Assembly: GCA_028287465.1 (NCBI GenBank)
Contig: JAQBPO010000067.1
Span: 5,353 to 69,352 of the forward strand
Length of the DNA stretch: 64,000 nucleotides
Direction: 5' to 3'
Source: Fibrobacterota bacterium
GTDB lineage: Bacteria; Fibrobacterota; Fibrobacteria; UBA11236
The notes under the pieces were generated by a model. The model saw only the letters and a program-made list of their open reading frames with translations, searched no databases and was not told the DNA's origin. The position numbers and the translations under genes are program-made. Positions 33,833 to 47,824 of this stretch are shown piece by piece; positions within the stretch are counted from its first letter, which is position 1, and each line of letters opens with the position of its first letter.

Positions 33833-33858
33833 GGCCTTAAAATGGGCTTAAATGGCTA
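33833..33858 (+). promoter_or_regulatory. Shared upstream motif GGCCTTAAAATGGGCTTAAATGGCTA, about 120 nt before the lipoprotein A gene
   Basis: A near-identical copy lies at 42344-42368, in front of the second TIGR02147 gene. Confidence 0.35.
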
Positions 33859-33978
33859 TATTTTGTTTTCAGATTCCGTAGTTCTATTGCCAACCCCGGT
33901 TTTCGGGGAGCATATTGTATCGCATACCGCCCCGACACGCGTCTCAAGGGGAAGTGGATTTTTCACAAAGGAGCTGCG

Positions 33979-44858: not shown

Positions 44859-45241
44859 GCCCGGATCCATTCCCCGCCAGCTCCGCATCCTGAACCGTCT
44901 ACGGATCCCCCAACCATGCTTCCATGAGCTTCCGATAGCCCGGGCGGACATCCCGAGGGCCGTCCGGAACCCGATTCACGTACTATGGAAATTCAGCCCT
45001 TACCGGGATTTTTGGAACTAAAACCGTAATAAGAAATCATGGCTTCCGTATCCTTCGAGCAGCCAATAAATGGATAAAAAAGGATAAAAAACCAGATAAT
45101 ACGAGGATGTCTGTAATATCCAGGAAATCATGACATTCCGGAGGCCCCGTAATTCGGGTATCATGGGTATGTGAACGACGAAGGGGATGGTCCGCTGCGG
45201 TGGCGGCCTGAACCGAAGAAACCCTCACAAGGAGTCCTCCC

Positions 45242-47824
45242 ATGAAAACCTCGACCCAAGTCAACAACACCAGGAAACTTCTCGCCGCGATGGCCGCCGG
45301 CGCCCTTATCTTCTCAGGCTGCTTCCGTGATGAATCCCCCACGACCGGCGATTCTTCCGGCGAGATGACCGCCACCATCGAAGGCCGCGTGCAGGGAGAT
45401 ACCCAGGTGGGCGGTCTCGGCAAGGGTACTTCCCTGGGCGGCGGGGTCGAAGGCGCGACCGTAACGGTCCTGCGTCTCCAGTCCGACGGTTCCTTTGAAA
45501 CCGTGTCCTCCGCCGGAGTGAAGACCGACGTGCAAGGCCGCTTTTCCATCAAGGCCACCGTGGACGGCGTCCGCGAGCTGGTGGTGAAGGCCGGCAAGGA
45601 AGGCAAGGAATGGAAGGCCGTGGTGAGCGGCAAGGTGAAGAAGGGGAGCAAGACCTTTTGCCGTCCCGTCAATATCGAATCCACGGTGGAGGCGGACGTG
45701 CTGGCCAGGATCCGCGCGGAGTCGCAAGGTACCGAAATCTCCTTCGCCGACGTCGCCTCGCATATCGATGCGGACCTGTCCGTAAAGGCGAACGGCAAGG
45801 CCGACGTGGAATCCTATCTCTCGGCCCAAATCAAGACCGAAGCCAAGGCCCGCACCTCGGTCCTGGTCTCCTCGGTCGGGAAGTCGACCCTGGCCCAGAT
45901 CGACCAGGCCAATGAGGCCCGCATGGATGCCGAGGCGAAACTGGAAGCGGACCTGGAAGCCGCGGCGGCCGCGGCATCTGCCGGTTCGACGGACATTTCC
46001 GCGGAAGCCAAGGCCAAGATCGAATCCGATTGGCATACCGCGGGATTCAAGGCCTGGACCGAGTCCGGCATCGCCTTGGGCGAACTCGCCAAGGCTTGCG
46101 AAGCCTCCTACCGGGTTTCCGTCGGCACCGGCGCAAACGCGACCGTGGATGCGTCCGCCAAGCTGGCTTGGATGCACCGCCTGGCCCTGGAGAATGCCGC
46201 GACCTTGGAAGCGGCCGTCAAGGAGGACGTAAAGGCCTCCGGAGGCCAGAGCGGTACCAGCGATATCGCCGTGACCGCCGGAGCGGCGCTGAAGGCCTCC
46301 CTGAATAACGCCAAGACCGGAGCGGAAATCGATTCCGCCTTCTCCGCCTTCCGGGCCTCCGTCTCCTTGGGGCTCAAGGCTTATATGGAAACCGCCTTGG
46401 GCGGCAAGGTCCTCCTGTCCGATTCGTCCGCGGCCCGCATGGCGTTGAAAACCTCGCTTGAAACGGCGGTCACGGCCGACCAGATCGCCGAAGCCTACCG
46501 GAAGTTCTACGTCTCGGCCGAAGCCGAAATCAAGGCCAAGATCGCCGGTTCCATCGGCACGGCCGACTCCGCCAAGGTCGACGCCCTGACGCGCACCGCC
46601 CTCCTCATAGGCATCCAGGGTAACGGAGGCGGTACGGTCGTCCTGCCGGGATTCTCCCTGAGCGGCAAGGTCGACGGGAACGTTTCCGGCGCCACCGTGC
46701 AGGTCGCGACCGTCAAAGCGGACGGAAGCCTGGAAATCCTCCCCAACGTGAGCGGCACCACCGATGCGCAGGGCGGATTCACCTTGAACACGGATGCCAA
46801 GCTTCCAGATTCCGCGGTGCTGGTGGTGACCAAGAACGATTCCAGGCTCATGGTCCTGATAGATTCGGCCACCGCCAAGCCCGTGCAGGTGGGGACGGAG
46901 TCCACCGTAGAGGCCCGAATCTACCAGCAGATCATCAAGGACGGCAATACCTCCATGGTGACCCGGGATGAGATCAAGGCTCATGTGGACAGCGGCGTGG
47001 CCGCCAGCGTGAACGGCGACGACAGCGCCATCGTCCACCTTATGGCCGGCCTGGAAATCGCGGCCAAGGCCCAGAACCGGTTCCTGATGGACAGCGGATT
47101 CGGGATCACGTCGAACGGCATCAGCCTGATCGCATCGGCCCGCGCGAGCGCTCAGACGAAACTGGAAGCGGACCTCAAGGCATCCGCCGGCGCGGCCGCT
47201 TCCGTCCAGGCCTCCTATGACGCCTACCACAAGACCATGGTCGATGCGTACGTGCAGGCCGGGCTCGATGCCCAGGCTTATGCCCGTTCCCAGCAGGTCT
47301 ATGCCCAGGCCCTGGCCCGGTTCACGGTGGGCCTGACCGCGGAAGCCAAGCTTTCCCTGGTCCGTAGCGCCCATGTCCAGGCCGCCCGAGCCTTGCGCGC
47401 AGGAGCCGAAGCCCAAGTAAAAGCCTCAGGCGCCAACGAAGCCACCCTGAAGACCCTGGCAGAGGCGGGAGTCGCCCTGCAGGCCTCCATCCAGGCCGCC
47501 GTGAGCGCGGAAGCCATCACCGGCGCCTATGAGAGCTACCATGCTTCGGTCATCGCGTCCCTCAAGACCGCCCTGGTCCTGCACGCAACCGTCATAGAGA
47601 ACCTGGACGCGAAGATACACGGCAAGGACGGCGCCCGCGCCCAGCTCATGTCCAAGCTGCAGGCCGCCGCGGATGCGGATGCGGCCGCCAAGGCGCATGT
47701 CGAATTCTCGGCTTCGGTGGAAGCGCAGGTTACGGCCGCCTTCGGCGGAGGGTTGGGCGCCCCGAGCGCGGCTCAGGTGAAAGCCGTTTCCCAGGCGATG
47801 GCGCTCGCGAACATGTGCGGGTAG
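45242..47824 (+). CDS. Large Ala-rich lipoprotein with an internal duplication: each half has a CarboxypepD_reg-like beta-sandwich followed by an Ala-rich helical region
   Basis: Lipobox IFSGC. The segments GATVTVLRLQSDGSF...QGRFSI and GATVQVATVKADGSL...QGGFTL are each followed by ESTVEA. AAGGAG RBS. The promoter region is AT-rich (44990-45130). Confidence 0.65.
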   Translation: MKTSTQVNNTRKLLAAMAAGALIFSGCFRDESPTTGDSSGEMTATIEGRVQGDTQVGGLGKGTSLGGGVEGATVTVLRLQSDGSFETVSSAGVKTDVQGRFSIKATVDGVRELVVKAGKEGKEWKAVVSGKVKKGSKTFCRPVNIESTVEADVLARIRAESQGTEISFADVASHIDADLSVKANGKADVESYLSAQIKTEAKARTSVLVSSVGKSTLAQIDQANEARMDAEAKLEADLEAAAAAASAGSTDISAEAKAKIESDWHTAGFKAWTESGIALGELAKACEASYRVSVGTGANATVDASAKLAWMHRLALENAATLEAAVKEDVKASGGQSGTSDIAVTAGAALKASLNNAKTGAEIDSAFSAFRASVSLGLKAYMETALGGKVLLSDSSAARMALKTSLETAVTADQIAEAYRKFYVSAEAEIKAKIAGSIGTADSAKVDALTRTALLIGIQGNGGGTVVLPGFSLSGKVDGNVSGATVQVATVKADGSLEILPNVSGTTDAQGGFTLNTDAKLPDSAVLVVTKNDSRLMVLIDSATAKPVQVGTESTVEARIYQQIIKDGNTSMVTRDEIKAHVDSGVAASVNGDDSAIVHLMAGLEIAAKAQNRFLMDSGFGITSNGISLIASARASAQTKLEADLKASAGAAASVQASYDAYHKTMVDAYVQAGLDAQAYARSQQVYAQALARFTVGLTAEAKLSLVRSAHVQAARALRAGAEAQVKASGANEATLKTLAEAGVALQASIQAAVSAEAITGAYESYHASVIASLKTALVLHATVIENLDAKIHGKDGARAQLMSKLQAAADADAAAKAHVEFSASVEAQVTAAFGGGLGAPSAAQVKAVSQAMALANMCG

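Follow-up and report, generated by a model that had tools for sequence, protein, structure and literature searches.

A cassette in which a TIGR02147 gene lies directly ahead of the gene for an envelope lipoprotein carrying the short peptide motif DDFPN, under a conserved upstream layout, occurs across the phylum Fibrobacterota. The two modules described here are best read as members of a set of at least four conserved, paralogous cassettes carried by this Fibrobacteria lineage. TIGR02147 was defined in Fibrobacter succinogenes, where it ranked second in size among the paralogous families, and its profile matches 14,460 clusters at 50% identity. We know of no function assigned to this large family, TIGR02147/DUF4423.

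The window is the whole stretch of DNA that was analysed, 64,000 nucleotides long; its source organism is an uncultured, metagenome-assembled genome (MAG). When the open reading frames (ORFs) were re-derived, the genes of both modules (including four lipoprotein genes and one for a secreted protein), the terminators and a shared upstream motif were all found where the original prediction had placed them. The genes and terminators, with T1 and T2 the TIGR02147 genes, are:

33979..35979, + strand: lipoA, a 666-aa lipoprotein with lipobox FAGC, a paralogue of lipoB without DDFPN (called from the ORF and pattern)
35996..36024, + strand: GC-rich hairpin then UUUUCC, terminator-like, 3' of lipoA
36108..37631, + strand: secreted 507-aa protein, probably an outer-membrane beta-barrel (alternative starts at 35940 and 36051)
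37632..38495, + strand: T1, TIGR02147 family, made up of an XRE-type HTH, a winged helix and helices at the C-terminus
38554..40161, + strand: lipoB, a 535-aa lipoprotein with lipobox LGAC, GGGGWDDFPN 12 residues past the Cys, and a helical-repeat fold
42476..43294, + strand: T2, TIGR02147 family, clade B; its HTH contains KGFKPL
43298..44773, + strand: 491-aa lipoprotein with LYGC and AGGDDIPN 11 residues past the Cys
44812..44855, + strand: long hairpin then UUUCC, terminator-like, 3' of the 491-aa gene (-44.8 kcal/mol, z -4.7)
45242..47824, + strand: 860-aa Ala-rich lipoprotein with FSGC, an internal duplication and weak CarboxypepD_reg similarity
47869..47892, + strand: terminator-like hairpin then UUUUCC, 3' of the 860-aa gene

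Module 1 is a conserved four-gene cassette that recurs amid different flanks, even at 40% GC, and its T1 orthologues are 68-91% identical. The stop codon of the barrel gene abuts the ATG of T1 (TGAATG), leaving a gap of 0 nt where 1 nt had been claimed. The distance from T1 to lipoB is 58 nt in the window and becomes a 4-nt overlap in relatives. LipoA and lipoB are 36% identical over 413 aa and 45% identical over 102 aa, and both contain the blocks APxHCGAxFG and LTGKVVFxDPTxGGxFPxL that had been quoted as shared. Searches of Pfam and NCBIfam with lipoA gave zero matches. The secreted protein has a signal peptide and a conserved C-terminal aromatic residue (it ends in AGLQAGY, of which QAGY is kept); searches of Pfam and the PDB, a profile of the barrel, and lenient Pfam searches with the barrel orthologues gave no match.

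Module 2 is a conserved cassette of TIGR02147 gene, lipoprotein gene, terminator and second lipoprotein gene, found at no fewer than 8 loci. The 491-aa gene begins 3 nt after T2, as predicted, and its family is the one that sits 3' of most TIGR02147 genes. The 860-aa lipoprotein is 19% Ala. PDB sequence searches with these two proteins returned nothing. Lipoboxes were called by pattern, as a signal peptide ending in [LVI][ASTVI][GAS]C; FAGC of lipoA, LGAC of lipoB and FSGC of the 860-aa protein were assigned on this basis, and LYGC of the 491-aa lipoprotein has an unusual Tyr at -2. The original prediction called the two modules paralogous. This description fits their TIGR02147 genes, the DDFPN motif of the coupled lipoprotein and the promoter layout, which are common to both, but not simply the modules as wholes.

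The linkage between TIGR02147 and lipoprotein genes extends far past the window. We located TIGR02147 genes in Fibrobacterota genomes with two peptide patterns, which yielded 62 evaluable loci and means that the census samples relatives of T1 and T2. Genes were called with a codon-position likelihood caller trained per locus, as longest-ORF calling picked antisense ORFs at 63% GC; the gene and lipoprotein calls are thus those of in-house heuristics and not of Prodigal, SignalP or LipoP. The next co-directional gene encodes a lipoprotein in 61 of the 62 loci, and coupling is tight in 56, with the downstream ORF mostly starting between -4 and +4 nt from the TIGR02147 stop codon; orthology among many of these loci means that they do not count as independent events. 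The linkage also survives the refutation test that the original prediction had set for the same genome, where another locus, L118, has a TIGR02147 gene, a DDFPN lipoprotein and the upstream boxes described below. The locus of P0054, a further TIGR02147 paralogue of this MAG, was not found. The surroundings of five more remote family members are mixed: two are coupled to lipoproteins, one adjoins a response-regulator gene and two have convergent neighbours. L121, a distant member, has paired boxes of a different kind, set 85 bp apart around a central AAAAATGG, and a lipoprotein gene comes next.

All 56 coupled ORFs encode a signal peptide ending in Cys and then, 5-15 residues on, the motif [DEQT][DE][FYI]PN. 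In the scan of the loci, every occurrence of DDFPN (54/54) was inside a lipoprotein encoded downstream of a TIGR02147 gene, and in the window the motif is found only in lipoB and the 491-aa protein. The lipoproteins that carry it include families otherwise unrelated to each other. In L118 and L069, the motif is about 80 residues past the Cys. We rejected DDFPN as a nucleotide-level element because synonymous positions inside it vary, which indicates selection on the peptide. In surface lipoproteins, DDFPN may serve for sorting or for binding a partner.

Upstream of these genes lie paired boxes of consensus YGTAAYM, a central element and a promoter-like region. In the window these are:

33789..33795, + strand: distal box TGTAACC upstream of lipoA, in the invariant block TTTTGTAACCAAA (box scan)
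33833..33857, + strand: central element, motif site 1, GGCCTTAAAATGGGCTTAAATGGCT, in which TTAAA(A)TGG occurs twice at a distance of about 11 nt
33864..33870, + strand: proximal box variant TGTTTTC of lipoA, inside invariant TTTTGTTTTCAGA and 75 nt away from the distal box
33887..33916, + strand: predicted promoter-like TTGCCA-N18-CATATT of lipoA, of which the CATATT(G/C)T part is conserved
42308..42314, + strand: distal box CGTAATA upstream of T2
42344..42367, + strand: central element, motif site 2, GGCCTTAAAACGCTTAAAATGGCT
42394..42400, + strand: proximal box CGTAATA of T2, 86 nt from the distal box
42410..42423, + strand: palindrome TCGACATGATGTCG, with the counterpart ATCAACATATTGTTGAT in L051 (conservation partial)
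42442..42449, + strand: -10-like TATATTTG, conserved as GTATATTTG in T2 orthologues
45025..45118, + strand: third tripartite site, upstream of the 860-aa gene, with CGTAATA at 45025, central CCAATAAATGGATAAAAAAGGATAAAAAACC at 45063-45093 and TGTAATA at 45112 (spacing 87)

The block TTTTGTAACCAAA does not vary among 5 orthologous upstream regions, whose genomes have 40-63% GC, and the lipoA proximal box lies 46 nt ahead of the -10-like hexamer, as in other TIGR02147 promoters. The layout of the third site also occurs upstream of orthologues of the 860-aa gene (L002, L040, L047, L051, L052, L056 and L061). Neither this site nor the near-universal, helically phased flanking boxes had figured in the original prediction.

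Several observations tie the boxes to TIGR02147 and lipoprotein genes. TGTAATC is present upstream of 30 of 72 TIGR02147 genes (1.2 expected), and among control genes it precedes 13/29 lipoprotein genes versus 1/57 others. A search of 1.68 Mb found 67 phased box pairs, 41 of them before TIGR02147 genes, 12 before genes with a strict lipobox and about 5 before other genes whose signal peptide ends in Cys. The distance between boxes is 74-77 (26 cases), 85-86 (6 cases) or 96-98 (3 cases), and all three classes occur inside clade B. The variant in the proximal box follows the clade of the regulator: GTAATA is found in 14/14 TIGR02147 promoters of clade B and in 8/8 neighbouring lipoprotein promoters, and GTAATC in 13/14 promoters of clade C and 9/10 of clade D. 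The proximal box lies some 46 nt ahead of the -10 and in many cases forms the left arm of GTAATC-N12-ATTAC; there is no conserved -10 downstream of the distal box. The spacer between boxes is AT-rich, with phased TTAAAATGG units in some lineages, including all three sites in the window. A box pair upstream of a nitrite/sulfite reductase gene has a spacing of 59, is off-phase and is probably due to chance. Rfam covariance models found nothing in the leaders (33000-48500 searched, E up to 1), and a sigma-54 reading of TGGCT... was rejected by eye, because the GG/GC spacing does not fit.

Both proteins belong clearly to the family, with NCBIfam TIGR02147 matches of 200.8 bits for T1 and 188.2 bits for T2 (cut-off 50) and Pfam DUF4423 (PF14394) matches of 80.8 and 60.8 bits (cut-off 30). 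They are 43% identical, somewhat less than the roughly 50% first estimated. A winged HTH fold had been suggested as something to look for, and the predicted model has two DNA-binding-type domains, each with invariant residues. The N-terminal domain is a five-helix HTH of the XRE/Cro-C1 superfamily that resembles C.AhdI and HigA, and the central domain is a winged helix (MarR/ArsR/PadR-like), in which an HTH is followed by a beta-hairpin wing. A peptide-sensing regulator of the RRNPP type (XRE HTH plus TPR) was considered and rejected, since the C-terminal part consists of the winged helix and long helices, with no TPR. FK replaces RR at HTH positions 51-52 in clade B alone; this change is a single event.

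We favor, with moderate confidence, a model in which locus-specific TIGR02147 regulators bridge the phased boxes and thereby control their own operon and adjacent lipoprotein genes. The protein, cytoplasmic and with two DNA-binding-type domains, would bind a direct pair of YGTAAYM boxes that share one face of the helix at a spacing of about 75, 86 or 97 bp, and bridging would give rise to a looped or wrapped complex. This complex would set transcription of the regulator's own operon, that is, its gene and the translationally coupled DDFPN lipoprotein gene. It might also set that of neighboring lipoprotein genes with the same box variant, for example the 860-aa gene and the operon led by lipoA. 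The evidence for TIGR02147 proteins as sequence-specific factors at the GTAAY boxes is indirect and consists of their co-occurrence, the phasing and the way in which box variants follow clades; binding of the boxes by these proteins, looping and the sign of regulation are inferred. The link between clade and box variant could instead reflect shared promoter ancestry and not recognition. The strict tie of a cytoplasmic regulator to a peptide motif of an exported protein is left without explanation by the bridging model.

Some other factor might read the boxes, for instance an alternative sigma factor or a regulator acting globally on envelope genes, in which case TIGR02147 would have another job and its link to lipoproteins would reflect co-expression in one regulon. 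One common factor would explain why box cores are alike across paralogue clades. Some promoters have tandem promoter-like hexamers around the central element, and the link between protein and box is drawn from sequence. However, we consider this unlikely, given that the boxes are nearly confined to TIGR02147 genes and the lipoprotein genes adjoining them, that the box variant tracks the local TIGR02147 clade, and that spacing quantised at about 11 bp fits bridging better than two independent promoters. The distal box without a conserved -10 of its own and the two DNA-binding folds with invariant residues also argue against it. Similarly, we doubt that the 25-nt motif GGCCTTAAAA...AAATGGCT, originally proposed as a shared operator with AAAATGG half-sites, is the operator of T1 and T2. 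The motif is highly non-random in the window: there are exactly 2 copies of GGCCTTAAAA (33833 and 42344; 0.06 expected) and 2 of the gapped form CCTTAAAA-N1-4-CTTAAA-N0-1-TGGCT (0.00 expected), and an ungapped 26-mer allowing up to 3 mismatches found no match in the window because the two copies differ by indels. Near-identical central elements are present in L052, L026 and L070, the AAAATGG core is enriched, being present midway between the boxes in 8 of the 52 promoters with paired boxes (0.3 expected), and the second DNA-binding domain of TIGR02147 could contact it. Yet the motif is missing from most TIGR02147 promoters, among them every clade C promoter and those of L051 and L045, which are close orthologues of T2. 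In lipoA orthologues the first half of site 1 is conserved and the second half is merely AT-rich, and the phased A-tracts could be a simple bend or a site for a nucleoid protein.

Duplication of the modules, with no function for the upstream likeness, is an explanation to which we give hardly any credence: T1 and T2 are indeed paralogous, but short non-coding blocks are identical where coding regions have fallen to 43% identity, the blocks are kept in genomes of 40 to 66% GC while their flanks are not, and the spacing is quantised. Secretion-coupled feedback, analogous to the FlgM/sigma-28 and type III chaperone-regulator circuits, would have TIGR02147 bind the unexported lipoprotein precursor through DDFPN, so that DNA binding reports export status. 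This would suit the exclusivity of DDFPN to coupled lipoproteins, even of otherwise unrelated families, the selection on the peptide, and the ATGA overlap of the two genes, which implies coupled synthesis. We think it very unlikely, because duplication of an ancestral TIGR02147-lipoprotein pair that kept a sorting motif is a simpler account of the exclusivity, the motif is displaced to about residue 80 past the Cys in L118 and L069, and the interaction with the precursor is conjectural throughout. A broader idea, which we regard as improbable, is that DDFPN is a new Fibrobacterota lipoprotein signal (a surface-export or sorting tag, or a docking peptide) and that a cross-talking network of TIGR02147 proteins, through similar but distinct phased boxes, chooses which sets of DDFPN lipoproteins are displayed, possibly with feedback from export status.

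The cassettes resemble several known systems in part. Polysaccharide-utilisation loci of Bacteroidota (SusR, hybrid two-component systems, or ECF sigma/anti-sigma pairs beside SusC/SusD) are from the same FCB group (Fibrobacteres-Chlorobi-Bacteroidetes) and, like the TIGR02147 cassettes, occur at numerous paralogous loci in a genome, every one having a regulator of its own next to genes for outer-membrane lipoproteins and barrels. Module 1 likewise joins two helical lipoproteins to a probable barrel. In contrast to those loci, TIGR02147 combines an XRE HTH and a winged helix with no recognised sensor domain, the barrel is about 500 aa with no signature of a TonB-dependent receptor, and the modules contain no glycoside hydrolases. 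We rejected assignment of lipoA and lipoB to the SusD/RagB family, as neither matches a SusD Pfam model and the fold match is weak, with no clear SusD fold; for lipoB, fold comparison gives no support. The GalR/HU repressosome and the two-operator loops of AraC, DeoR and NagC likewise have paired similar sites whole helical turns apart and an AT-rich, bendable centre. Here, however, the two sites repeat directly at a distance of about 75-97 bp and both precede the -10, with no recognised HU or IHF site.

XRE autoregulators such as HigA antitoxins and the C proteins of restriction-modification systems match the N-terminal fold; in these too the regulator comes first and overlaps its partner, and its own promoter has a palindrome around -35. 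The partner here is an exported lipoprotein instead of a toxin or enzyme, and there is an extra winged-helix domain. A role in toxin-antitoxin systems or anti-phage defence was rejected, as the partners carry signal peptides and 0/7 proteins match PADLOC. In Bacteroides fragilis, UpxY/UpxZ are regulators heading each capsule locus. Paralogous regulators lead surface-structure loci in both cases, and similar but distinct cis elements could allow cross-talk, although the UpxY/UpxZ proteins are unrelated (NusG-like antiterminators) and the evidence here points to no mutual exclusion. Lauber and colleagues are said to have described, in 2016, a Bacteroidota lipoprotein export signal of acidic residues right after the lipidated Cys. 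That signal and DDFPN are both short, acidic and near the mature N-terminus of FCB lipoproteins, whereas DDFPN lies further from the Cys, has an invariant F/Y-P-N and is confined to coupled lipoproteins instead of marking surface lipoproteins at large. Searches of the accessible literature on what TIGR02147 does, on promoters of Fibrobacter and on an export signal of its lipoproteins came back empty; DUF4423 is mentioned once, incidentally, for Bdellovibrio Bd3700 (PMC12546842).

Our analysis offers a first testable function for the TIGR02147 family and four handles on it: a candidate DNA site whose helical phasing is strict, a set of envelope lipoproteins as candidate regulon, a peptide motif diagnostic of the partner lipoproteins, and box variants that are each specific to one clade of regulators. 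Fibrobacterota break down cellulose and chitin by means of cell-surface proteins, and to our knowledge almost nothing has been established about their gene regulation. If confirmed, the function proposed here would annotate thousands of hypothetical genes and open the control of surface proteins in this phylum to study. If DDFPN were in fact a signal read within a regulatory network, this would be a new regulatory logic of cell-surface composition in a phylum whose surface proteins drive the degradation of cellulose and chitin.

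Both modules of the window are conserved cassettes. An ORF check of the window (GC ~63%) bore out every gene position originally predicted for them:

33979-35979, module 1, lipoprotein A (lipoA)
36108-37631, module 1, secreted 507-aa protein, candidate outer-membrane beta-barrel (the barrel)
37632-38495, module 1, TIGR02147 protein T1
38554-40161, module 1, lipoprotein B (lipoB)
42476-43294, module 2, TIGR02147 protein T2
43298-44773, module 2, 491-aa lipoprotein
45242-47824, module 2, 860-aa lipoprotein

The order lipoA-barrel-T1-lipoB was found in at least four other lineages (loci L002/L003, L004/L005, L006 and L008, from other Fibrobacterota DNA), which differ in flanking genes and range in GC from 40% to 63%. 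The orthologues are 68-91% identical for T1 and 44-68% for lipoB, and the T1 and lipoB genes overlap by 4 nt in L002-L007 and are separated by a gap in L008 (85 nt) and in the window. For module 2, the arrangement of T2, 491-aa lipoprotein, terminator and large lipoprotein is repeated in L002, L040, L047, L051, L052, L055, L056 and L061. Relatives of the module proteins come almost exclusively from MAGs of two Fibrobacterota classes, Fibrobacteria and Chitinivibrionia. The 491-aa protein is 100% identical to a MAG protein at NCBI (JWP91_3327, 'Fibrobacteres bacterium'), and a Logan contig of run SRR13312996 is identical to the window at 33.2-47.2 kb. In L004, a further TIGR02147 paralogue (279 aa, 26% identity to T1; 11664-13818) adjoins module 1 and overlaps the gene of a downstream 440-aa protein with LRR and CarboxypepD_reg.

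The family assignment of T1 and T2 is secure (NCBIfam TIGR02147 scores of 200.8 bits for T1 and 188.2 bits for T2, with a cut-off of 50 bits), and both contain DUF4423. Their identity is 43%, lower than the ~50% originally estimated, and the barrel stop directly adjoins the T1 start (TGAATG), where a 1-nt gap had been described. The 3-nt distance from T2 to the 491-aa gene was correct, as was the paralogy of lipoA and lipoB (36% identity over 413 aa, 45% over 102 aa), which share the blocks APxHCGAxFG and LTGKVVFxDPTxGGxFPxL as quoted. Terminator-like hairpins follow lipoA and the 491-aa gene as expected, and also the 860-aa gene. The lipoA, barrel, lipoB, 491-aa and 860-aa proteins had no match in Pfam, NCBIfam, PADLOC or PDB sequences, except for a below-threshold match of the 860-aa protein to CarboxypepD_reg. 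The latter protein is internally duplicated (residues ~24-460 versus 458-860, 28% identity), each half beginning with a segment similar to CarboxypepD_reg and continuing as Ala-rich helical sequence. At its C-terminus T1 has a low-complexity tail, NDMANDKANDKAKDKAVKW (38440-38495), that is missing from T2 and for which T1 orthologues of 273-277 aa are, by length alone, too short.

Directly 5' of module 1 (29781-33701) are a 505-aa and a 661-aa ORF, predicted from synteny with L002 to encode a KaiC-like ATPase and a PAS/HisKA/receiver hybrid kinase, followed by a BrxC monothiol bacilliredoxin gene (33336-33701); the same order occurs in L002, L003 and L008. Directly 3' of module 2 is a low-GC island (48000-53200, ~48% versus 63%) with small secreted ORFs (48556-48927, 48999-49418 and 52790-53137), a 175-aa lipoprotein (50007-50534) and a PGAP1/DUF676-like esterase (50693-52663). 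The island may have been acquired horizontally; no tRNA gene was found in the window.

Linkage of TIGR02147 genes to lipoprotein genes, proposed in the original prediction, extends well beyond the window. Our scan, which took one genome per GTDB species and was biased toward relatives of T1 and T2, yielded 72 loci, every one from Fibrobacterota. Because longest-ORF calling fails at a GC like that of the window, genes were called with a codon-position likelihood model trained on each locus; genes, signal peptides and lipoboxes were all called heuristically. A complete T (TIGR02147) gene and sufficient downstream DNA were present in 62 loci, and in 56 of these an ORF of at least 150 aa adjoins the T stop, with its start mostly at −4 to +4 nt, although many loci are orthologous and such counts overstate independent events. 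All 56 coupled ORFs encode a signal peptide with terminal Cys (a strict lipobox in 44), and in five of the six other loci a lipoprotein gene lies 85-270 nt downstream of T. Most of the coupled proteins are distant homologues (22-31% identity) of the 491-aa protein. L118, a locus from the same sequencing run as the window genome, has a 328-aa T gene followed by a lipoprotein gene; thus the source genome itself contains the linkage outside the window, where its absence had been named as the refuting result. Among distant family members, L121 has a large lipoprotein gene 3 nt after T and another member is coupled to a small lipoprotein; a third is accompanied by a response-regulator gene, and the neighbours of two others are convergent. 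Linkage to lipoproteins is thus strong in the clades related to T1 and T2 but not universal in the family, which comprises 14,460 clusters at 50% identity.

Many T genes and neighbouring lipoprotein genes in these loci also share a promoter architecture, consisting of direct pairs of YGTAAYM boxes. TGTAATC occurs upstream of 30/72 non-redundant T genes (1.2 expected, k-mer analysis), and among control upstream regions of the same loci (n=86) TGTAAT[CA] precedes 13/29 lipoprotein genes versus 1/57 others. Consecutive boxes are spaced on an 11-bp ladder: 74-77 (26 cases), 85-86 (6), 96-98 (3) and a few at 46-47 and 64. T2 orthologues alone show all three main classes, so length changes have been tolerated only in units of helical turns. 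On both strands of 1.68 Mb of locus DNA there are 67 phased pairs: 41 before T genes, 12 before strict-lipobox genes, 6 before other signal-peptide genes (~5 with a lipobox-like Cys) and 8 elsewhere. A conserved -10-like hexamer (TATACT or TATATT) lies 45-47 nt 3' of the proximal box, which in many promoters is the left arm of GTAATC-N12-ATTAC, extending to the -35 region.

Paired-box sites in the window
5' of lipoA: distal box 33789, proximal box 33864, spacing 75
5' of T2: distal box 42308, proximal box 42394, spacing 86
5' of the 860-aa gene: distal box 45025, proximal box 45112, spacing 87

The shared ~25-nt motif originally reported at 33833 and 42344 is genuine and non-random, but it is only the middle of this larger layout and is missing from most T promoters. 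GGCCTTAAAA occurs in the window only at those two positions (0.06 expected), and a longer gapped motif twice (0.00 expected). It lies between the boxes at the lipoA and T2 sites, with a degenerate form, AATAAATGGATAAAAAAGGATAAAAAA, at the 860-aa site. The AAAATGG core was found between the boxes in 8/52 promoters (0.3 expected), at 0.47-0.60 of the inter-box distance, with near-identical central elements in L052, L026 and L070; most promoters, including those of close T2 orthologues, lack it. Upstream of lipoA in five genomes, the invariant blocks are TTTTGTAACCAAA, TGTTTTC and CATATT, and only the first half of the motif is conserved.

Other promoter features were seen nearby. A palindrome, TCGACATGATGTCG, at 42410-42423 between the T2 proximal box and the -10-like hexamer, with a counterpart in the same place in L051 (ATCAACATATTGTTGAT), may be a second, T2-specific operator. 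Clade C T promoters (L012-L025) have the geometry TATACT-N6-ATG, which suggests leaderless transcripts. In the window, TATACT-N7-ATG (36036-36053, ATG at 36051) shortly 3' of the lipoA terminator and TATAAT-N7-ATG (38541-38556, ATG at 38554) 5' of lipoB could be internal promoters. L118 contains a second, shorter TIGR02147-like gene (1195-2310, minus strand) facing a plus-strand pair of Pro-rich ORFs, and the divergent region near it has phased boxes on both strands (spacing 85 and 74). Two YGTAATC boxes 59 nt apart on the minus strand (11268-11333), 5' of a nitrite/sulfite reductase gene (9203-11113), are probably a chance pair, given their off-phase spacing and a downstream gene that does not encode a lipoprotein.

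The box variant follows the regulator clade. GTAATA is the proximal box in 14/14 promoters of clade B (T2-type) and in 8/8 promoters of the neighbouring large lipoprotein, and GTAATC is the proximal box in 13/14 clade C and 9/10 clade D promoters and in 3/3 neighbouring lipoprotein promoters at clade C/D loci; the module 1 boxes are GTAACC and GTTTTC. The end of the HTH reads KGFKPL in clade B alone and KGRRxL in the other clades. This match fits paralogue-specific recognition. It amounts to a single evolutionary event, however, and could also come from shared promoter ancestry. In the much more distant L121, a different box pair, GTTCAGTAAA, is exactly 85 bp apart (4864-4958) with AAAAATGG (AAAAATGGAAAAT) at the centre, and the second box lies inside a TGAACGTTCA palindrome.

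The coupled lipoproteins themselves share a short motif, [DEQT][DE][FYI]PN (DDFPN), present in every one, usually 5-15 residues past the Cys (~80 residues in L118 and L069) and usually preceded by Gly-Gly or Gly-Val. In a six-frame scan of L007-L078, limited to ORFs of at least 150 aa, 54/54 occurrences of the Phe form, [DEQT][DE]FPN, fell in the first lipoprotein gene 3' of T. In the window the motif is found only in lipoB (GGGGWDDFPN) and the 491-aa protein (AGGDDIPN), besides one non-coding frame; lipoA, a homologue of lipoB, and the 860-aa protein lack it. DDFPN follows position 3' of T, not lipoprotein family. Synonymous codons within it vary (TTC/TTT, CCC/CCG/CCT/CCA, AAC/AAT), showing that selection acts on the peptide. 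The association would be explained most simply if an ancestral T-lipoprotein pair had been duplicated repeatedly and its copies had kept an N-terminal motif of functional importance, which may be a signal for surface sorting or docking. Feedback between export and regulation would be a more novel explanation than duplication and seems less likely.

An AlphaFold model of T (44-sequence alignment, pLDDT 86) has three parts: an N-terminal XRE-type HTH, a predicted central winged helix that matches MarR, ArsR and PadR-type regulators, and a C-terminal part of long helices. Both DNA-binding-type domains contain invariant residues, and no signal peptide or membrane segment was evident. Membership in the SusD, RRNPP, toxin-antitoxin or defence families was rejected, as the defining features tested were lacking. 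Full-text literature searches found nothing on TIGR02147 function, the paired boxes or the DDFPN motif; the sole mention of DUF4423 was incidental, in a Bdellovibrio proteomics table (PMC12546842), and a phylogenomic study of Fibrobacteres (PMC4704652) covers TIGR02145 and TIGR02148 and not TIGR02147.

All of this evidence is comparative, and in the most economical model of it TIGR02147 proteins would be locus-specific regulators that bind the phased boxes. They would probably do so as oligomers, bridging the two boxes over a bendable AT-rich spacer; the central TTAAAATGG units might bend the DNA intrinsically, bind a nucleoid protein or be contacted by the second DNA-binding domain. In logic, such a system would resemble the locus-embedded regulators of polysaccharide-utilisation loci in Bacteroidota and the looping of GalR and similar two-operator systems, and by fold it would resemble XRE autoregulators. 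By bridging the boxes, each T protein would control its own operon and the adjacent lipoprotein genes.
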